Shown in pieces: positions 6,459-56,329 of a DNA stretch of 64,000 bases; positions within the stretch are counted from its first letter, which is position 1; every line of letters starts with the position of its first letter. Below the pieces are notes generated by a model. That model saw nothing but the letters and a program-made list of their open reading frames with translations, was not told where the DNA came from and did no database searches. Both the position numbers and the translations under genes were made by a program. Source of the DNA: Candidatus Bathyarchaeia archaeon (GTDB lineage Bacteria; Patescibacteriota; Microgenomatia; PFEM01; JAFGMK01); NCBI GenBank assembly GCA_035529595.1, contig DATKWK010000023.1, positions 142,961 through 206,960 of the forward strand, written 5' to 3'.

Positions 6459-6641
6459 TATAAGTTGATGCTTTAGGACGTCACTCTTAGGGTGTAAAAG
6501 TACACCTTCTTATCCGGGTTTTGCTGATCCGGTCAATTATTTTTATCATCTGCTTGGCATCTTTATCAAGAATTCTTCAGTTTTTTCTCTAATACGGTTC
6601 TGATAAGGTATAATACCCGTTTAAGCAGATTTTAAATAAGC

Positions 6642-6779
6642 TACGAGTTTCGTACTTTAATTTAAACCAGCCTATTTGTCATCCTGGAGGGTCGATACTT
6701 CGACCCGATAGGATCTCAAAACAAAAAAAGAGATTCTATCGCTGACGCTCCAGAATGACAGACAACTGCGAAACTCGTG
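6642..6779. mobile_element. 138-bp MITE-like structured element in the ABC-F 5' leader
   Basis: Terminal inverted repeats CTACGAGTTTCG (6642-6653) and CGAAACTCGTG (6769-6779), flanked by TAAG on both sides (6638-6641, 6780-6783). Nested internal stems: 6677-6689 with 6748-6760; hairpin GGGTCGA-tact-TCGACCC at 6689-6706; 6706-6717 with 6730-6741. The paralogous leader at 22297-22322 has the same flanks with a single TAAG and no element. Confidence 0.5.
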
Positions 6780-6792
6780 TAAGCGCACAATT

Positions 6793-8274
6793 ATGATTAT
6801 CGTCAAAGACTTATTTTTTTCTTTCGGCGAGAAACCTCTTTTTTGCGGGGTAGATTTTATTGTGGGAAAAGGACAAAAAGTAGGTTTGGTCGGCCCGAAT
6901 GGTTCAGGAAAAACGACGCTTTTTAGGCTTCTTAGCAGAAAAGAGATGCCGGATGGAGGAACTGTTGAGACTGTTGGTGAGGTCGTTTTAGTCCCGCAGG
7001 AAATTAAATACGATCAGGAAATGGAAGAAAGCCGTTCAATAAGAAAATACCTGGACAAAAACGACGAACATAAAGATTTTGAGCTTTTAAGACTACTCCA
7101 TTCTCTTGATCTTGATGATTTGGATCTAAAATCTTCAGCTTGGCGTTTAAGCGGTGGACAAAAGACAAAAATGGCTTTGGCTAAAGCTTTACTTGACGAG
7201 CCCGATATTCTACTACTTGACGAACCAACCAATTTTATGGATTTCAAGGGAAAAAGGTGGGTGATGAATTTTTTAAGTAAATATCCCAAAACGTTAGTTT
7301 TGGTTTCTCATGATCTCAAGTTGCTGGACGAAGCGATTGACCGGGTTTTATATATCAATCCTCAAACTCATAAGATCGAGGAGTATAAAGGAAATTACTC
7401 AAAGTTTATCAATCTTAAAGAAGAAAAAGAGGCATTGTTAAAAAGGCAGATAACGGCTGAGCAAAAACACATAAAAAGGTTGGAGGAGAGTTTAAAGATA
7501 CTTTATCGATATACTTCCAAAAAAGGAGTAAGGGCCAGAGTTATGCTGCAAAGAAGAATTGCCAGATTAAAGGAATCACTGCCTGACTTACCGCTAGAAG
7601 TCAGACGAATTAAAGTAAAATTGCCAACTCCTTTACCAACCGGAGAGCTGCCGATCCGTGCGGCCAGTATCAGTAAATCATTTGGTAAGAATGAGGTTTT
7701 TAAAAATATTAACTTTTCGGTCATGAAAGGAGAAAGGGTGGCTTTAATCGGGCCAAACGGTGTTGGCAAAAGCACTTTGATAAAAATTCTTGTCGGTGTT
7801 TTAAAGTCGGATAGGGGAAAAGTTACCAAAAACGATAACTTAAAAATCGGCTACTATTCGCAGGAGTTTGAAACTCTCGATCCGGAAAAGACACTGCTTC
7901 AGACAATTAGAAACGGATGCCATCAGGCAGAAGCATTTGCCCGGCCTTTTTTAGGACGGTTTAACTTCTTAAAAACTAAAGTATTTCAAAAAGTGAAATA
8001 TCTATCGGGTGGGGAAAAAACCCGTTTAGCAATTGCTCTGCTGGCCGGACAGGATTTTAACCTGCTTGTTCTGGACGAACCGACAACTTACCTAGATCCG
8101 CTCTCCCAAAGAATTATTTTAAATACTTTAAAAGAATACCGGGGAACGATGATTATCGTTAGCCATACCCGGGAATTTATTTCCGAGCTAAAACCAAACC
8201 GGGCTTTCTTGATGCCGGAAAATAAAATGGTTTTCTGGTCGGATGAGCTATTAGAGAAAGTAGCTGAAGTATAA
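6793..8274 (+). CDS. ABC-F family ATPase (two ABC domains, no TMD; EttA/ARE-like translation factor)
   Basis: Walker A GPNGSGKTT and GPNGVGKST. Two signature motifs LSGGQKTK and LSGGEKTR. Walker B LLLDEPTN and LVLDEPTT. Tandem nucleotide-binding domains with a linker. Confidence 0.85.
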   Translation: MIIVKDLFFSFGEKPLFCGVDFIVGKGQKVGLVGPNGSGKTTLFRLLSRKEMPDGGTVETVGEVVLVPQEIKYDQEMEESRSIRKYLDKNDEHKDFELLRLLHSLDLDDLDLKSSAWRLSGGQKTKMALAKALLDEPDILLLDEPTNFMDFKGKRWVMNFLSKYPKTLVLVSHDLKLLDEAIDRVLYINPQTHKIEEYKGNYSKFINLKEEKEALLKRQITAEQKHIKRLEESLKILYRYTSKKGVRARVMLQRRIARLKESLPDLPLEVRRIKVKLPTPLPTGELPIRAASISKSFGKNEVFKNINFSVMKGERVALIGPNGVGKSTLIKILVGVLKSDRGKVTKNDNLKIGYYSQEFETLDPEKTLLQTIRNGCHQAEAFARPFLGRFNFLKTKVFQKVKYLSGGEKTRLAIALLAGQDFNLLVLDEPTTYLDPLSQRIILNTLKEYRGTMIIVSHTREFISELKPNRAFLMPENKMVFWSDELLEKVAEV

Positions 8275-8301
8275 AACAAAACTGGCAAGCAGGAACTGTA
8301 A

Positions 8302-10737: not shown

Positions 10738-11148
10738 GTTTTTTAAAATCGTTATGAATTATAACTAGAATTAAATTAGCAGATTTCGTAATAAGGGGAA
10801 ATTAAATGCAAAAAAATCAGCAAGAGAATAAAGAAAGAGAGGAAGTCGAAAAGTTTAGACCTGAGCTTCTTGCAGCGCTCCATTGACTCAACATCATTAT
10901 CAAAACCCGTTTGTCCGTGAATGGAGTCTAGCCCTTGGTTGTACCCTTTTTTTTGGTGAGTTAATGATTGCACTTTTGGGATTTTGGTGCTTTAGTGCGG
11001 TCGGTTTTTATCAATCAGACTCCTTACGAACTCGGAATTTTTCAGAAAGTTCTGGGAGAGAGTGCATTCGATGATCAGGAAAAATGCTTTTCATCTGTGT
11101 TCAAGTATATCTTTTCCTGTCCAGAATTTGTATAATCGAGGTGTAAAT

Positions 11149-11550
11149 ATGAAATCAAGAATTGGACATATTTATATTTACGCTTCGGATTTAGAAAAGA
11201 GTTATCAGTTCTATAAAAAATTTCTGGGGTATTTGGACTATCGGCAAAACTTTAAGTCGAAGAAATTTTTTGCTTTCATCAAAGACGGCACCAGTATTTT
11301 TTTTGAGCAAGCTCCGAAAGATCACTTAAATGACGGTTACCATCGTCGGAGAATTGGTTTAAATCATTTAGCCTTTCGGGTTGATTCAAAAGAAGAAGTT
11401 GACCGGTTTAATAACGATTTTCTTAATGCTAATGACATAAAAACTCTTTACAATACCCCAAAGCCCTTTCCGAAATACGAGAAAGGCTATTATGCTGTTT
11501 ACTTCGAAGATCCGGACAGAATTAAACTGGAAGTTGTGTATTATCCCTAA
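11149..11550 (+). CDS. VOC (glyoxalase/bleomycin-resistance/dioxygenase) family protein
   Basis: MKSRIGHIYIYASDLEKSYQFYKKFLGY...LNHLAFRV matches the VOC fold pattern. A GAGGTG Shine-Dalgarno sits 8 nt upstream of the ATG at 11149, so the track start at 11062 is probably too long. Confidence 0.65.
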   Translation: MKSRIGHIYIYASDLEKSYQFYKKFLGYLDYRQNFKSKKFFAFIKDGTSIFFEQAPKDHLNDGYHRRRIGLNHLAFRVDSKEEVDRFNNDFLNANDIKTLYNTPKPFPKYEKGYYAVYFEDPDRIKLEVVYYP

Positions 11551-20556: not shown

Positions 20557-21357
20557 CTATTCTATTGGGAGGTAGATTTCAAAAAATTGTAGCGTTATGT
20601 CTTGGTTCACCTCTCTATAAATCTCAAAATCTGGTATATCCTTTTTTATCTTGAGGTTGTTTAGTTTACAGTACTTTTCAAGCTCCTTCCAGAATAATGA
20701 AAGCAAACTGCCCGAGCCATTGTGGGTATAAGTTATCACCTTACCTGGGTTATATTCCATATGCTTAACTACGTCTTTATACTGTTCTTTCACTCTCATG
20801 GCTTCATTTGCTAGGACGCCTACCTTAATTCTACTTTGTTTAGGCTGATAGGTAGGGTCTTCAAATAAAGCAAGAGTTGTAAAGCTGCTACCCTTATTCT
20901 CAAACATATCTGAAAGCTCTTGACAATATTCACCAATTTTTGCATAAGGGCCTTCTTTATCTGTGTAATAGACTCCAAAAGGGGACAGAATCTTGATTTT
21001 TGGGTCAACCATGGTTCCATTTGTCTTTAAATTATTTAAAAATTTTTCAAGATTCCTTAAGTTAAACTGAAGTTCATCTATCTGTTTCTTAATGAGAGCC
21101 TTTTTGTCATTAAATAATTCAGGAAGGCTACCCCTTCGTTTCAAATAGAGTTTAATCTCATCCAAAGATACACCAAAAGTAGTTAGGAGAAGGATCATCT
21201 GATAATCAAGAACCTGTTGTTCTTTATAGTAGCGATACTTCTTACTATTTATCCGAACAGGCTTCAAGACGCCTTTTTCACCATAGAAAAGAATCGTCCT
21301 TTTGGTGGTATTGGCTAACTTGGCAAATTCTCCGGTGGTGATATAATCGTTTTTCAT
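20557..21357 (-). CDS. MerR-family transcriptional regulator with C-terminal effector-binding domain (BmrR/TipA-like)
   Basis: N-terminal HTH YITTGEFAKLANTTKRTILFYGEKGVLKPVRINSKKYRYYKEQQVLDYQMILLL. Start chosen at 21357 (MKNDY), not the track start at 21420. Confidence 0.7.
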   Translation of the reverse strand: MKNDYITTGEFAKLANTTKRTILFYGEKGVLKPVRINSKKYRYYKEQQVLDYQMILLLTTFGVSLDEIKLYLKRRGSLPELFNDKKALIKKQIDELQFNLRNLEKFLNNLKTNGTMVDPKIKILSPFGVYYTDKEGPYAKIGEYCQELSDMFENKGSSFTTLALFEDPTYQPKQSRIKVGVLANEAMRVKEQYKDVVKHMEYNPGKVITYTHNGSGSLLSLFWKELEKYCKLNNLKIKKDIPDFEIYREVNQDITLQFFEIYLPIE

Positions 21358-21365
21358 ATTGTCTA

Positions 21366-21396
21366 TTGACAATGACGTTACGTTATAGTTTATTAT
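21366..21396 (+). promoter_or_regulatory. MerR-type promoter with 19-bp spacer: TTGACA (21366-21371), 19 nt, TATTAT (21391-21396), driving the SDR gene
   Basis: The spacer length is read directly. A 19-bp spacing is the hallmark of MerR-regulated promoters, and the regulator is divergently transcribed. Confidence 0.55.
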
Positions 21397-21437
21397 CCGC
21401 TGAGAATGAAGAATTGTCAATTAAAAAGGAGGTAAAA

Positions 21438-22235
21438 ATGAAAAAAAGAAATAAAGTAGCTTTAGTTACTGGTGGAGCTTTAGGATTTAAGGATGGTGGG
21501 CCGTCGATTGGTGGAGCAATTACTATCAGATTAGCCAAAGATGGTTATAACGTAGTCGTCTTGGATTCTTGCTCGATGGGAGAAAAAACGATTGAGGTCA
21601 TTAAGAATAATGGCGGTGAAGGAGTTTTTGTAGCTGGAGATGTTGGTACCACAGTTGATATTAAGATGGCAATTGAGATAGCCAAAAAGAATTTCGGTGG
21701 CTTAAATTGCCTGGTTAATTGTGCGGCTCGTTATACTTCTGGTATGGCCAAAAATGTGGTTGAAATCTCAGAAGACGAATGGGAGAAAACCCTTCGCGTT
21801 AATCTGGGCGGCTATTTTCGGACTGCCAAATACGCAATTCCGGTGCTGCTTAAATCCGGCGGAGGAACGATTATAAATATCTCCTCTAATGCCGCTTTTA
21901 CTGCTCTGCCAGATTTTAGTATCTACTCGGTTTCGAAAGCGGCAATTAATGGCTTAACCAGATCTTTGGCAGTTGATTTTGCGCCCAAGATAAGAACTAA
22001 CGCGATTTGCCCGGGTTTTGTCAGAATAGCTAATTCGCAGAATAATCGAGGTCGAAAAGAATTGGAAGAATGGTATAACAGAATTGCTAAGCGCTACCCA
22101 ATGAAGCGAGTTTGTGAAGTCGAAGAAATTGCCAGCGTTGCTTCTTTTTTAGCAAGCGATGAGTCGTTCTATATTAACGGAACTACAATTGTCGTTGATG
22201 GTGGTTATTTGGCCGCCGACAGTCATGAATTCTGA
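21438..22235 (+). CDS. Short-chain dehydrogenase/reductase (SDR)
   Basis: VALVTGGALG Rossmann motif, NAAF and YSVSK (YxxxK) catalytic motif. A strong RBS AAAGGAGG sits 8 nt upstream of the ATG at 21438. Confidence 0.8.
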   Translation: MKKRNKVALVTGGALGFKDGGPSIGGAITIRLAKDGYNVVVLDSCSMGEKTIEVIKNNGGEGVFVAGDVGTTVDIKMAIEIAKKNFGGLNCLVNCAARYTSGMAKNVVEISEDEWEKTLRVNLGGYFRTAKYAIPVLLKSGGGTIINISSNAAFTALPDFSIYSVSKAAINGLTRSLAVDFAPKIRTNAICPGFVRIANSQNNRGRKELEEWYNRIAKRYPMKRVCEVEEIASVASFLASDESFYINGTTIVVDGGYLAADSHEF

Positions 22236-22322
22236 TTCTACATAAAGAGCGGAATGTCGTCATACCGACACCGGATTATGCCCTTTTTGAAGTTTAGGCA
22301 GATTTTAAATAAGTGCCTAACT

Positions 22323-22406
22323 ATGATTAAAGTCAAAGATTTATTTTTTTCTTTTGCGGAAAAAGCTTTTACTTTAGAATTGCTGAAAAAAGTAGCTGAG
22401 GTATAA
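22323..22406 (+). pseudogene. Remnant of a second ABC-F paralog: first about 17 codons fused directly to last about 8 codons (internal deletion of about 1.4 kb)
   Basis: ATGATTAAAGTCAAAGATTTATTTTTTTCTTTTGCGGAAAAAGC parallels the start of the 6793 gene. ...TTGCTGAAAAAAGTAGCTGAGGTATAA parallels its last codons (LLEKVAEV*). The upstream leader GCAGATTTTAAATAAG is also shared. Confidence 0.65.
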
Positions 22407-22483
22407 AGCTGCTTCAGTCTGGTTGAGAAAAGTGTTATTAACAACTTTAAGAATTTTTAGCTGACCAAGAGATTAAAAAGAAA

Positions 22484-22876
22484 ATGGATTTGCTGATTAA
22501 GGTTGGTTCGGATTATTTGGAAGTCGGACAGACACTTGATACTTTGTCCGGCGGTGAATCGCAAAGATTAAAATTGGCCAGCCGATTGCAGCGACAGGGC
22601 GAGTTTTATATTTTGGATGAACCGACTTCCGGCTTACATTTTGCCGATATTGAAAAATTATTGACCTTGTTTAACCGATTAGTTGATAACGGTAATACCG
22701 TCTTGATTGTGGAACATAATCTTGACGTGATTTAAAATGCCGATTGGCTAATTGATTTAGGACCGGAAGGAGGAGTAAATGGAGGCAGGCTTATCGCTCA
22801 GGGAACACCGGAAGATGTTAGCAAAGTAGCCGATTCTTATACCGGTCAATACTTAAATGAAACAGCTGGAAATTAA
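22484..22876 (+). pseudogene. uvrA: uvrA C-terminal fragment (about 130 aa) with in-frame TAA at 22733-22735
   Basis: [16 protein letters not shown]...[19 protein letters not shown]...[26 protein letters not shown]...GTPEDV reproduces the UvrA second ABC signature/Walker B/H-loop and C-terminus. There is no upstream approximately 800-aa portion. The stop replaces a conserved Lys. Confidence 0.7.
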
Positions 22877-22877
22877 G

Positions 22878-23443
22878 ATGCATAAAAAAATTGCTAAAAA
22901 GATCTATCTTTTGTTGGAGTTACTGGCCAAAGGCGGTAGTTCAGTGATTCTCAAAAGTAAACAAGAATATGAAATTATGACTTTAGACTTAACCACATTG
23001 GTTTTTGTTACCCGGTTTCTTCTTTGAAAAAAGAGAAAGATGAAATTACCCTTGAAGCGCGTCAAAAAGCCCTTGCTTTATATCAGCTAGACTCGAATAA
23101 TAATACTCCCTGGTGGTTTATCGGAGATATTACCAATTGGCGCGATTCCATGCTTGAAGCCTTGCCGGTTGAAGGGAAAATCGAGGACCGGGAAAAAGGC
23201 TATTGGTTGCCCCATATTCATTTTGATTTTGATACTAATTTAGTTTATGAAGATATTGAGCAAATTAGCCATCGGATTTTTAAAGGGACAAGAAAATTAA
23301 CGCCTTTGGTTTACGACGGTTTTGTTACTCAAGCCAGGTTGTGGCAAGGCGTTATTAGCGGTGTTAATATCCATTTGGATTTAGGCACGGCAGCCAGAAA
23401 CACCAGGTATGTTAGAAAGGTAATGCTAACCAAAATTAAGTAG
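22878..23443 (+). pseudogene. Hypothetical gene split by a 1-nt frameshift at a T/A homopolymer junction (about 23019-23031)
   Basis: ORF 22878..23027 (MHKKIAKKIYLLLELLAKGG...) and ORF 23024..23443 are in adjacent frames. Adding one T to CTTCTTTG fuses them (...FLLLKKEKDEI...). Function unknown. Confidence 0.35.
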
Positions 23444-23581: not shown

Positions 23582-24652
23582 ATGAGTCTTTCTGTCGGGA
23601 TAGTCGGGCTGCCGAATGCAGGTAAGTCGACTCTTTTTAATGCTCTGTTGGGGTGTCAGATTGCCGAAGTAGCCGAACGTCCCTTTACCACGATTGAGCC
23701 AAATACGGGCGTGGTTGTCATCCCTGACTCGCGTCTTGAAAGGTTAGGACAGTTGATTAAGCCCGAAAAGTTAGTGTCGGCAACTATCAAATTTATCGAT
23801 ATTGCCGGTCTAGTCAAGGGTGCTCATAAGGGAGAGGGTTTAGGTAATCAGTTTCTATCCCAGATACGATTCTGTGATGCAATTCTTCATCTGGTACGGG
23901 CCTTTTCTAATCCACGCGTTGTCCGTCCCGAAGAAAGTCTTAATCCGCTGGCGGATGCCGAAATCGTTAATTTGGAAATGGCCTTGGCTGATTTGGAAAT
24001 CGTCGAGCGAAGTTTGATCGAAGCTAAAAAAAAAGCCCGGGTTAACTCGGACATGGCAGCGTTGGTCGGGGTTCTTGAAAAAATTAAAGCCGCACTCGGT
24101 AAAGACCAGGTAACTATCAGAACTCAGTTGACAGATGAAGAAAAAGAAATAATCAAGGAGCTTAATTTGCTGACCTTAAAGCCAATGATTTATATTTTAA
24201 ATGTTGATGAGTCCGGCCGGGGGCAGGATAAGAATCTGCCTTCATCTTTTCCAGTATTAGAAATTTGTGCTGCTTTGCAAGCTGAATTAACCGGTCTTGA
24301 AAATAGTGAGAGGCAAGAATTTGCAGGTGAATTTGGTTTAGAAGAGGGAGCTTTAAACCAGCTGATAAAAGAGGCCTATCAATTGTTGGATTTGATTACT
24401 TTTTACACTATTAAGGGTGGTAAAGAAGTTCATGCTTGGCCGATTAGAAAAGGCACCAAGGCTGTTGTCGCCGCCGGGCAGGTTCATACTGACATGGCCC
24501 GAGGCTTTATCAAAGCGGAGGTTATCAATGTCGATCAATTATTATCAATCGGTAGTTGGCAAAGGAGCAAAGAATTAGGAAAACTGCAACTGCAAGGTAA
24601 AGATTACAAAGTTACCGATGGCGATGTAGTCGAATTTAAGTTCTCCAATTGA
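23582..24652 (+). CDS. ychF: Ribosome-binding ATPase YchF (Obg-like GTPase family)
   Basis: GIVGLPNAGKSTLFNALL G1 motif, NxxE-type G4 region and C-terminal TGS domain (...VHTDMARGFIKAEV...). Confidence 0.85.
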   Translation: MSLSVGIVGLPNAGKSTLFNALLGCQIAEVAERPFTTIEPNTGVVVIPDSRLERLGQLIKPEKLVSATIKFIDIAGLVKGAHKGEGLGNQFLSQIRFCDAILHLVRAFSNPRVVRPEESLNPLADAEIVNLEMALADLEIVERSLIEAKKKARVNSDMAALVGVLEKIKAALGKDQVTIRTQLTDEEKEIIKELNLLTLKPMIYILNVDESGRGQDKNLPSSFPVLEICAALQAELTGLENSERQEFAGEFGLEEGALNQLIKEAYQLLDLITFYTIKGGKEVHAWPIRKGTKAVVAAGQVHTDMARGFIKAEVINVDQLLSIGSWQRSKELGKLQLQGKDYKVTDGDVVEFKFSN

Positions 24653-48845: not shown

Positions 48846-49945
48846 AAAAAGATAAAGGAGGCGAAGAGAAGGGGAGTAGCTAGTGTTATCCTATAATATA
48901 TTCTATTATATCTTTTCACGAACCCAATCCATAGTTTTCACGAACAGCAGATTAAAGGCAAGACCGCCAGAAGATATTTGACCATGGGCATGTAGCTAAC
49001 TTAAGATAAAATCAATATAAAAGCACTCATATTTATTAAGCCTCCTCTCTTCAAGCGGAGGTATCCAAAATCGATATAAAATTAATATTAAATTAGCCTC
49101 ATAATATTACAAGATTGCCCAATCATAGCCCCTTTTTCGTGATATATATTGATATAGTTTAAGAAAAGCTTGTGGAAAAGTAAATGCCGCTTGAAAAGAA
49201 CTTACCTGATTAAAACAAAGAACTAGTTTGCAGACAGTCATGCTATTATGTTTTCTTTTTAAGAAATGGTCCCTATTTCTCCGGACATAGCTTTCTGGTA
49301 AATTTTTAAATAAGACACCAGCTAACCTTTAACACCATGTCGTACAATGTAACTTTTGCGACGTTGGTAGAAAGTAATTGTCGGGGAGGGACTTTTTAGA
49401 AATTTATTATAAAATAAATTGAACAAAATAAAATCTAGAAATAGATAATACTGAATAAGCTTTTGATAAAGATTTCTCTATTATGTGAACATCTTATGAT
49501 TATAATAATAATTACTTTTTAGGCAGACGATACTTCTCCGTTCTTTGTCGGTATCCCCTGGTAATTTTTTGGTTAATCAATGACAATTTTTTATGTTTGT
49601 GTCAATTAATATGATCACTTAATCGGGTAGACTCCTAAACAGGCTTTAAAATGGCTCTAGGCGGCTCGTTCTATTTAAAAGTGATATGGGTTTAAAAAAG
49701 TTTATTTATTTACCGCCATTTTATCCTTTATTACTTATGTCGCACAATATTGACATTAAAATTGTTTTAGATTATGATGTTTATGTAATAAGCAAGACGG
49801 ATGTAAATCATATTTAACCACGGATATTAAATTACAATTAATATATTATGGTTGGAAAGAGTTTATCCTAACATGAAAATTATAGGCCTATTCCCCTACT
49901 TCACTATAGGATTAATTCGGGACCAGAAAAGAAATTTCTTCTTCG

Positions 49946-50899
49946 ATGAAAGAAAAAAAAGACTTGAATCAATTAATTGAAGAGTTCTTGGAACACTTGG
50001 AAGTTGAAAAAAACGCTTCTAGGCTGACAATTAGAAATTATCGCCACTATCTTGGTCGTCTTTTAACTTGGATTGGAAAGAATTTTCCCGGAACTCAAAT
50101 CGATCAGCTTGATCTGGAAATAATTCAGAAATATAGGGTATATTTAGCCCGATATATAGGCAAAAATGGCGAAAGCTTGGCGCTTGTCACTCAGGGCTAT
50201 CATGTGATAGCTTTGCGCTCTTTTCTTAAGTGGCTTCTTAAAAATGATTATAAGACGCTTACTCCAGAGAAAATAGACTTACCTAAGACGCGTTCTAGGT
50301 CATTAAAGTTCTTAACTTTGGAGCAAATCGAAAGCTTACTGGCTCAACCTGCAATCTCGACTATTCGCGGCTTAAGAAATAAGGCAATCTTGGAAATAAT
50401 GTTTTCTACAGGACTACGGGTGTCTGAGGTGGTTAGACTTGACCGTGATCAAGTGAACCTAAAGACACGGGAATTTGGAATAGTCGGTAAGGGCGGCAAG
50501 GCGCGCGTGGTTTTTTTATCTTACCGGGTTGTCAAGTGGCTGACTCGATATCTATCTCAAAGGAAAGACGATTTGAAGCCATTATTTATTAATCACCAAA
50601 AAAAATATGAGGTTGATAAGATTGCCGATCGAAAAACTGATAAGAACGTCAGACTAGGCGTTAGATCGATCCAGCGGTTGGTCAAAAGATATGCTAGGAA
50701 AGCTAAGCTGCCGATTGAAGTAACCCCTCATGTTATCCGTCACTCTTTTGCTACCGATCTGCTTATAGCTGGCGCAGATCTAAGATCGGTTCAAGAGATG
50801 CTTGGACACCAAAATATATCTACGACTCAAATTTATACCCACGTTACTAATCGGCAACTTCGCCAGGTCCACGATGCGTTTCACCGAAAAGGCAGTTAG
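49946..50899 (+). CDS. Tyrosine recombinase, XerC/XerD family
   Basis: Catalytic R (GLRVSE), HxxR (HVIRHSFAT) and Y (TTQIYTHV). A promoter-like TTGACA-17-TATGAT sits at 49752-49780. Confidence 0.85.
   Translation: MKEKKDLNQLIEEFLEHLEVEKNASRLTIRNYRHYLGRLLTWIGKNFPGTQIDQLDLEIIQKYRVYLARYIGKNGESLALVTQGYHVIALRSFLKWLLKNDYKTLTPEKIDLPKTRSRSLKFLTLEQIESLLAQPAISTIRGLRNKAILEIMFSTGLRVSEVVRLDRDQVNLKTREFGIVGKGGKARVVFLSYRVVKWLTRYLSQRKDDLKPLFINHQKKYEVDKIADRKTDKNVRLGVRSIQRLVKRYARKAKLPIEVTPHVIRHSFATDLLIAGADLRSVQEMLGHQNISTTQIYTHVTNRQLRQVHDAFHRKGS

Positions 50900-54355: not shown

Positions 54356-56329
<1,974 letters not shown>

Follow-up and report, generated by a model that had tools for sequence, protein, structure and literature searches.

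Does the tail of a UvrA gene, lying among other broken reading frames, mean that a bacterium is losing nucleotide excision repair? The question is raised by a 64,000-nucleotide stretch of DNA (the window) from a metagenome-assembled genome, in which the 1.35 kb between the stop codon of a short-chain dehydrogenase (SDR) gene at 22235 and the start codon of ychF (23582-24652) contains no intact gene. Three broken gene remnants adjoin one another there, i.e., those of an ABC-F gene (22323-22406), a UvrA-like gene (22451-22876) and a third gene, ORF3 (22982-23443). A preliminary description of the window took these adjacent decayed genes as a sign of ongoing genome reduction, with the loss of nucleotide excision repair caught in the act. 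The presence of three decayed genes side by side was borne out, as all three are truncated relative to their homologs, but the conclusion about DNA repair was not. Our analyses indicate that what lies between 22235 and 23582 is very probably left over from effector genes of an accessory operon under MerR control and that the UvrA-like relic is uninformative on UvrABC excision repair.

The remnants have the features by which pseudogenes are recognized, i.e., truncation relative to all homologs together with a premature stop or a lost start. The UvrA-like gene retains 142 of 748 codons and contains an in-frame TAA, the ABC-F gene retains 27 of 493 codons, and ORF3 retains 139-152 of ~250 residues, with a TGA upstream.

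The UvrA-like remnant and its orthologs

The UvrA-like remnant (22451-22876, plus strand; 142 codons) is the 3' end, with its own stop codon, of a paralog with a class II architecture. The preliminary description had correctly recognized that 22484-22876 encodes a UvrA-type C-terminus (approximately the last 130 amino acids, aa). This segment matched positions 813-940 of the 943 in NF001503 (E = 1e-56, 193 bits) as well as TIGR00630 (E = 1e-50, 173 bits), and the remnant matched the C-terminal portion of all solved UvrA structures. By tblastn, it aligned in a single frame to residues 608-742 of a 748-aa UvrA-like protein encoded at a related locus, L085, with 75% identity. A start codon, the Walker A motif and the N-terminal 607 residues are missing. 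The absence of the upstream part had been described before, with its size put at ~800 aa; since the parent gene encodes 748 aa, the loss amounts to ~607 residues. Homology begins at ~22451, within ~45 nt of the stop codon of the ABC-F relic, and two further stops lie just upstream, where homology has already faded. Inside the fragment, a TAA (22733-22735, plus strand) replaces the Lys of the motif EHNLDVIK that all homologs have, as had also been noted. No other UvrA-like sequence was found within the 64-kb window, which is part of an 846,852-bp JGI contig, such that absences from the window say little about the genome.

Intact relatives of the locus reveal what the fragment derives from. At L085, a merR gene (265 aa) is divergent from the UvrA-like gene (748 aa), which is followed, 10 nt after its stop, by a 250-aa homolog of ORF3. 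Another locus (L126, on a 341-kb contig) is syntenic with the window on both sides, carrying merR, an intact UvrA-like gene and ychF, with a PEP-utilizer gene beyond merR and, after ychF, the same order of S6, SSB, S18, S41 peptidase, HtrA, RF, EamA and HisRS. The suggestion that relatives might have an intact uvrA at this position proved half right, i.e., an intact gene is present there, and it is the paralog instead of uvrA.

A census of the locus was made by a metagenome scan that was anchored on the regulator, blind to the state of its neighbors, and returned 80 loci. Results showed that the UvrA-like gene beside merR was uninterrupted (743-786 codons) in 37 loci and undisrupted up to the contig end in 25. 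It was scored as disrupted in two (L155, clearly; L136, doubtfully) and was absent from five, while 11 loci were uninformative. Of 69 informative related loci, 62 carry the gene either intact or without disruption up to the contig end, and open reading frames (ORFs) cover ~92% of the window, with one long non-coding gap besides the remnant region, so that "ongoing genome reduction" is too broad a description. The locus records the sporadic, local loss of an accessory module rather than general erosion, and the decayed copy itself is ordinary. Its internal deletions that leave gene ends, nonsense mutation, lost start and non-essential genes are those of the deletion-biased pseudogene decay known from small-genome bacteria. 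Unlike such decay in general, it is confined to one place, the rest of the window being densely coding and the same gene being intact in most relatives.

The idea that the paralog is recurrently fragmented in genomes of the candidate phyla radiation (CPR) was considered and rejected in light of the census (37 intact versus two scored as disrupted). The idea had arisen from the 31 best protein matches, all 120-220 aa long, a result of contig ends and the ranking of near-equal scores. A few other broken, independent UvrA-like copies were encountered. That of L001 (5369-8447) has two frameshifts and a stop, beside a merR that is also full of stops; those of L086 (1843-4070) and L155 (3-2137) have one frameshift each, near residues 590 and 565, respectively; and that of L003 (146-1262, Amesbacteria) has an internal deletion of residues 154-516.

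The fragment also carries a diagnostic indel. The GGE-to-DEP linker, which connects the signature to Walker B in the second ATPase domain, comprises 19 residues in the window fragment. The same length was found in 58 sequences, including every cassette-linked paralog examined, as compared to 22 residues in 146 other UvrA proteins, those of CPR bacteria included. A 22-residue linker is present in those CPR UvrA genes (L008, L009, L038, L046 and L047) whose length or linker was checked, and the 31 closest database relatives of the fragment among the best protein matches listed (69-80% identity) share the shorter one. The 22-residue linker of class I proteins is thus absent from the fragment. On a neighbor-joining tree, the fragment is nested deep within the cassette paralog clade, which a long branch splits from canonical UvrA; its own terminal branch is among the longest in the clade. 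Since two-sided synteny, phylogeny and the linker indel agree, we assign the fragment as an ortholog of the MerR-linked UvrA paralog that lacks a UvrB-binding domain. On the same three grounds, the fragment is the tail of this paralog and not of canonical uvrA, and the relic neither supports nor refutes a loss of UvrABC excision repair.

Class II proteins of the Ecm16 and UvrA2 types do not have the UvrB-binding domain that all UvrA proteins contain (PMC9328131, PMC10192343), and class II-type proteins do not work with UvrB (PMC10192343). Ecm16 acts without UvrA, UvrB, UvrC or UvrD and fails to complement a uvrA mutant (PMC9328131, PMC10192343). Since the relevant region is deleted in the window, the presence of the domain was determined on same-locus orthologs. 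The 748-aa protein of L085 aligned to NF001503 at positions 1 to ~118 and 265-941 (the latter covered by its residues 120-746), skipping positions ~119-264, i.e., the segment of the UvrB-binding domain; the L001 protein skipped ~119-264 as well. Orthologs at the locus are thus without the UvrB-binding domain and zinc module 1 (~140 aa after residue 118) of class I proteins. Paired Cys motifs flank residues ~133-256 of the L085 protein. By comparison, the canonical uvrA genes of two CPR loci (L008 and L046) and a Firmicute (L057) comprise 943-965 codons and have an extra CxxC...CxxC segment of 138-147 aa at the skipped point; no match to this segment was found in the window or in 83 cassette loci.

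The intact ortholog shares two ABC ATPase domains, a CxxC-flanked insertion domain and a C-terminal zinc module with the class II proteins Ecm16 (S. lasalocidi), DrrC (S. peucetius) and UvrA2 (D. radiodurans), and when the window fragment is aligned to Ecm16 (7SH1), the linker needs none of the 3-residue gap that is required with class I structures. Unlike these proteins (812-842 aa), the ortholog is shorter (748 aa), scores nearer to class I in sequence, and is found under a MerR/GyrI-like regulator in small CPR-type genomes and not in a biosynthetic cluster; the window, moreover, keeps just the last 142 codons, with a stop codon among them. A UvrA-like gene of Chitinophaga filiformis (Bacteroidetes; L012, 6144-8366) shares 45% identity and the 19-residue linker with the CPR paralog and can be aligned to it as a single block without the UvrB-binding-domain segment. 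Since it shares both the linker and the missing segment, the architecture of the paralog reaches beyond CPR.

The surviving regulator, its promoter and the SDR gene

The regulator that anchors the operon is intact. It lies on the minus strand (20557-21357, with its ATG at 21357) and encodes a 266-aa MerR-family protein with a GyrI-like effector domain (Pfam: MerR_1, 1.8e-13; GyrI-like, 8e-8) that is 73% identical, over its full length and with no stops, to the 265-aa regulator of L085. Its own promoter was placed on the minus strand at 21420-21392 by a promoter scan. A MerR-type promoter that points away from merR was read directly from the sequence on the plus strand (21367-21397), where TTGACA and TATTAT are separated by a 19-bp spacer, ATGACGTTACGTTATAGTT, which contains an imperfect palindrome; this promoter now stands before the SDR gene. 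Promoters whose spacers measure 19-20 bp are those that MerR regulators activate (PMC8113463). The divergent merR intergenic region can be aligned with those of relatives, and the pattern TTGACW-N3-ACGTWRCGT-N7-TATTAT was present in 42 of 166 loci, all of them merR-linked cassette loci across diverged metagenomic lineages, with the window's own sequence (L004) included among the 42. Where checked, the pattern adjoined merR on the strand facing away from it. A helix-turn-helix (HTH) with an effector domain, a promoter with a 19-20 bp spacer and a palindromic operator, all of which occur here, are the marks of MerR drug-sensing activators.

Multidrug-sensing MerR proteins with GyrI-like domains, i.e., those of the BmrR, EcmrR and BrlR types, share with this regulator the N-terminal MerR HTH and the C-terminal GyrI-like ligand domain, and the divergent target promoter with its 19-bp spacer and internal palindrome is likewise of their kind (PMC8113463). 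Unlike those systems, the controlled genes here encode a UvrA-like ATPase, a VOC-fold protein or an SDR, and no efflux pump.

The intact SDR gene (21438-22235, plus strand) is preceded by AAGGAGG and is the first gene after the MerR-type promoter. Its product matched adh_short_C2 (1.4e-59, profile positions 7-235 of 236) as well as NCBIfam SDR models. In all 37 intact related loci, no SDR gene is present between merR and the UvrA-like gene; the SDR gene of the window occupies the slot where the UvrA-like gene starts in these relatives, 80 nt from the merR start and behind the same promoter. When SDR or ABC-F genes were sought in the related cassette loci, just one instance was found, a merR-SDR pair at L151 with the same operator and an SDR 59% identical to that of the window. 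Judging from this arrangement, the surviving regulator and promoter would now control the SDR gene in this genome. At yet another locus (L103, 6751-8593), a close ortholog of the regulator (66% identity to the window MerR) is divergent from a predicted membrane protein rather than from the UvrA-like gene. The membrane protein looks like a cation-diffusion-facilitator transporter, and the MerR sensor appears to have been re-used there with a different effector.

Relics of the ABC-F gene and of ORF3

The ABC-F relic (22323-22406, plus strand) consists of 27 codons that read MIKVKDLFFSFAEKAFTLELLKKVAEV, followed by a stop, and joins the N-terminal 16 codons to the C-terminal 9-12. An intact paralog of 493 aa, encoded elsewhere in the window (6793-8274, plus strand), served as the reference. 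Relative to this protein, MIKVKDLFFSFAEKAFTLELLKKVAEV shows 75% identity over the N-terminal 16 aa (E = 3e-4) and matches the last 9-12 aa. At the DNA level, 22310-22370 matched 6780-6840 (79%, E = 2.6e-8) and 22389-22407 matched 8257-8275, the 3' end of the intact gene. Protein and DNA matches thus agree with the earlier proposal that the two ends of an ABC-F paralog have been joined over a deletion of ~1.4 kb. The lost coding sequence amounts to ~465 codons, and the two linked ABC domains that define an ABC-F protein are gone. Upstream, 22270-22322 (plus strand) is a remnant of the promoter and leader of the paralog, with ~140 nt of leader missing between two TAAG repeats; 22292-22313 matches 6619-6640 at 21 of 22 bases, just 3' of a TATAAT at 6608. 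Since both the leader and the coding ends match the intact ABC-F locus, the relic descends from an entire paralogous transcription unit.

The intact paralog scored 396.9 bits against a cutoff of 380 for NF000355, a model of ribosomal-protection-like ABC-F proteins, and so resembles the antibiotic-resistance-type members of this group. The relic keeps termini and parts of the leader and, unlike those proteins, is a dead gene without either ATPase domain. MIKVKDL... was also considered as a possible N-terminus for the UvrA-like gene and rejected, as paralogs of that gene begin with MNTIAIHGARENNLKN or MDSIYIKGAKENNLKN and the ABC-F match is far stronger. The leader of the intact ABC-F gene (6608-6792) extends for ~170 nt after the TATAAT box and contains a GC-rich hairpin (GGGTCGA...TCGACCC) that is reminiscent of the attenuators found upstream of resistance-type ABC-F genes.

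The third remnant (22982-23443, plus strand) represents the C-terminal ~60% of ORF3, i.e., residues 97-250 of a family of 225-256 aa, the N-terminal domain having been lost. It is 58% identical to residues 97-248 of the 250-aa protein of L085. Two ORFs that overlap each other, in different frames, occupy 22878-23443. The preliminary description attributed the split of 22878-23443 to a 1-nt homopolymer indel, an explanation that fails, since the conserved motif FRLNHIGFCYP is encoded in the downstream frame from 22982 (its RLNH(I/V)GF strand from 22985) and thus precedes both homopolymer runs (T5 and A6) where such a slip would have to lie. The downstream frame is closed by a TGA at 22970, and its sole remaining start is a TTG at 23024, past the RLNH motif, which yields an ORF of 139 aa. 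The ATG at 22878 is separated from the RLNH motif by 36 codons, as compared to ~97 in homologs. From these positions, ORF3 has lost ~60 codons in its 5' part, with the start that remains being out of frame. A possible leftover of that start and of the first ~20 codons lies at 22878-22981 (plus strand), in a different frame and one base after the UvrA-like stop, a position comparable to that of the L085 homolog, which begins 10 nt after the stop.

A profile search placed ORF3 in a family of 77 clusters. The other 76 members are 205-256 aa long, except for one of 169 aa, such that the 139-aa ORF of the window, with 139-152 alignable residues, is the shortest. The family was recovered from metagenomes only, with one named member from Patescibacteria and no informative function names. 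No Pfam or NCBIfam model matched it, and none of 73 members matched a VOC Pfam model of the Glyoxalase type at E <= 1. An AlphaFold (AF2) model of an intact homolog (P0124), built on an alignment of 73 sequences, had a pLDDT of 95.9 and a pTM of 0.92. In a Foldseek search of PDB with this model, all 23 matches with E <= 0.001 belonged to the VOC superfamily, which is marked by paired beta-alpha-beta-beta-beta modules, the best being methylmalonyl-CoA epimerase, glyoxalase I, extradiol dioxygenases and bleomycin- and fosfomycin-resistance-type proteins. The matches to such proteins span ~150 columns with E-values of 5e-5 to 2e-3 and probabilities of up to 1.00, at modest TM-scores (0.5-0.62 on target). 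We are therefore confident in the predicted VOC (glyoxalase/bleomycin-resistance) fold of the family, as modeled on an intact homolog; the window copy lacks the N-terminal third. Unlike known VOC proteins, members of the family have an extra N-terminal domain of ~95 aa. An earlier AF2 model of ORF3, based on four sequences, had a pLDDT of 66 and no significant fold matches, and was replaced by the model described here.

Genes of the ORF3 family occur on either side of the UvrA-like gene depending on lineage. In contrast to the gene at L085 (9900-10652), distant members (33-35% identity) are encoded at L098 (113-814), L132 (9189-9911) and L136 (1377-2054) in the interval that separates merR from the UvrA-like gene. 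That members adjoin the UvrA-like gene in these three loci supports a functional link of ORF3 to the cassette. Separately, the window encodes a conventional member of the glyoxalase/bleomycin-resistance family at 11062-11550 (Pfam PF00903, 3.7e-9).

Origin and interpretation of the locus

The orthology of the fragment, the two-sided synteny, the lesions, the conserved promoter and the identity of sequence across assemblies were observed directly, and they suggest the following history. In the ancestral state, as found intact in relatives, a MerR/GyrI-like regulator would have been divergent from a UvrA-like ATPase of 743-748 aa without a UvrB-binding domain, in some lineages accompanied by a 250-aa VOC-fold protein, with a promoter whose 19-bp spacer holds a palindrome. 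Regulator and promoter have survived in this genome and would now drive the SDR gene. The ABC-F paralog downstream of it has been reduced to its two ends; the UvrA-like gene is missing codons 1-607 and has acquired a nonsense codon; and the VOC-fold gene has lost ~60 codons near its 5' end, leaving a start in another frame. The SDR and ABC-F segment may have entered the operon by recombination, at the cost of 1.8 kb at the 5' end of the UvrA-like gene, and the remnants are presumably non-functional.

Assembly or sequencing errors might conceivably have created the stop codon and the frame changes in genes that are actually intact, as single-base errors do occur in metagenome-assembled genomes and TAA is one base away from AAA. 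Large deletions, however, cannot be assembly errors. With 607 UvrA-like, ~465 ABC-F and ~60 ORF3 codons missing, the loss is far beyond base-calling error, and we concur with the preliminary description that the absence of the 5' portion of the UvrA gene is real. Furthermore, a Logan assembly of SRR8554511 shows 100% identity with the window across 21,071 bases, the remnant region among them, and the same truncated 139-aa ORF is recorded in JGI (847 kb), NCBI TPA (275 kb) and ENA contigs; since reads may be common to the agreeing assemblies, this agreement is no independent proof of the TAA by itself. An artefact is consequently extremely improbable. Hardly more credible is the notion that the fragment is the end of the genome's own class I uvrA, now in decay, and that excision repair is being lost. 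Its C-terminus does match the equivalog models NF001503 and TIGR00630, at the E-values given above, and canonical UvrA structures, and the 64-kb window has no other uvrA. That absence means little in a window drawn from an 847-kb contig, and the fragment is flanked by the regulator and partner gene of the paralog, is nested inside the paralog clade, has the 19-residue linker where the CPR UvrA proteins checked have 22, and corresponds to a syntenic intact gene that, in relatives, has no UvrB-binding domain.

If the genes are truly broken, their small products could nonetheless have been retained for some function, namely an 83-aa ABC signature fragment, the 139-aa half-VOC protein and the 27-aa peptide. 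Gene callers annotate the 83-aa and 139-aa ORFs, the UvrA-like fragment is 75% identical to its homolog with no frameshifts, the promoter upstream looks active, and a scan detected no terminator-like site that would separate the remnants from the SDR gene. The 83-aa ORF, however, is without a Walker A motif and ends before the D-loop and H-loop region, while the 139-aa ORF begins after the invariant RLNH strand in a family whose other 76 members, but for the one of 169 aa, have at least 205 aa. The long terminal branch of the fragment also fits relaxed constraint, and we regard retained function as quite unlikely. A further alternative concerns the route rather than the outcome. A single recombination between paralogous MerR operons, one with SDR and ABC-F genes and the other with UvrA-like and ORF3 genes, might have swapped in the SDR segment, with a crossover at the shared operator that cost the UvrA-like gene 1.8 kb from its 5' end and with only minor lesions thereafter. 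The exact placement of the SDR gene at the UvrA-like start position of the 37 relatives (80 nt from the merR start, same promoter), the merR-SDR pair of L151 and the onset of UvrA-like homology within ~45 nt of the ABC-F relic stop are in keeping with such an exchange. The donor arrangement (merR, SDR and intact ABC-F) was not recovered in any relative, and the ABC-F relic and ORF3 each have internal deletions of their own, so several events are needed anyway. A one-step replacement is thus possible but doubtful; it refines the history of operon decay proposed above rather than competing with it, and recombination between paralogous MerR operons is a plausible, unproven route to the present arrangement.

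Several observations weigh against our interpretation of relics of a MerR-controlled accessory operon. The intact ortholog, although below the NF001503 cutoff (824 versus 1147), passes the looser cutoff of TIGR00630 (799.7 versus 729.8), and in a PDB search the L085 protein scored 678 bits with class I UvrA (2R6F) as opposed to 580 with Ecm16 (7SH1) and 519 with D. radiodurans UvrA2 (2VF7). Its sequence therefore does not group with characterized class IIa members; the paralog is class II by architecture, not a demonstrated class IIa member, and may constitute a separate subclass. The 3' UvrA-like fragment is in good condition, its 142 codons being interrupted by a single stop and by no frameshift, such that inactivation may be recent or the fragment might conceivably have some residual use. 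The N-terminal remnant of ORF3 was placed by its position and a weak similarity (alignment score 32; E = 2.3). No relative with the order SDR, ABC-F, UvrA-like was found among the related loci, which makes the sequence of events conjecture, and the function proposed for the cassette comes from analogy in every lineage.

That function would be an inducible defense against DNA-binding or otherwise toxic small molecules, a reading suggested by analogy with Ecm16 and DrrC, with drug-sensing MerR regulators and with VOC drug-binding proteins. The components in question are a MerR sensor with a GyrI domain, a UvrA-like ATPase of the UvrB-independent type and a VOC-fold protein, joined in this genome by a former ABC-F protein of the ribosomal-protection type. 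More broadly, we tentatively propose, with somewhat less than even confidence, that the intact locus could be a widespread, undescribed and inducible module of Patescibacteria/CPR for defense against DNA-binding natural products, made up of the MerR/GyrI-like sensor with its conserved 19-bp-spacer operator, the compact 748-aa UvrA-like ATPase and, in some lineages, the VOC-fold family. If so, the window records one lineage discarding the module while keeping its sensor to control an SDR gene. Within the cassette there may also be a UvrA subclass whose loss of the UvrB-binding domain occurred separately from that in Ecm16 and UvrA2.

The correction of the gene's identity averts a wrong trait call, in which a loss of excision repair is inferred from the tail of a paralog. 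A C-terminal UvrA match alone cannot distinguish class I from class II, whereas synteny and the 19- versus 22-residue linker can. As a by-product, a conserved, three-part CPR locus with a recognizable promoter and operator has emerged, which combines a drug-type MerR sensor, a UvrA-like ATPase whose architecture is class II, and a family that lacks annotation and is predicted to adopt the VOC fold. The intact cassette is a testable candidate for antibiotic defense in organisms that are not yet culturable and, as such, a modestly interesting lead.

Other features of the window are of minor interest. Rfam and tRNA scans detected nothing relevant to the remnant region. A 1.07-kb AT-rich segment (48846-49915; GC ~0.30) lies directly 5' of a tyrosine recombinase gene (49946-50899) and contains no ORF of at least 45 aa, no Rfam match and just trivial tandem repeats; it could be an integration scar, an unrecognized RNA or another decayed region. 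The source genome is named "Candidatus Bathyarchaeia archaeon" by NCBI (HUW21703.1, HUW21735.1). The window, however, carries bacterial genes (e.g., at 23582-24652 and 54356-56326), including those for gyrase A and B, S6-SSB-S18, a type IV pilus ATPase and DUF5656, and those few cassette-gene homologs that carry a name are from Roizmanbacteria, Amesbacteria, Dojkabacteria and unclassified Patescibacteria. The Bathyarchaeia name has probably been given in error to a CPR bacterium.

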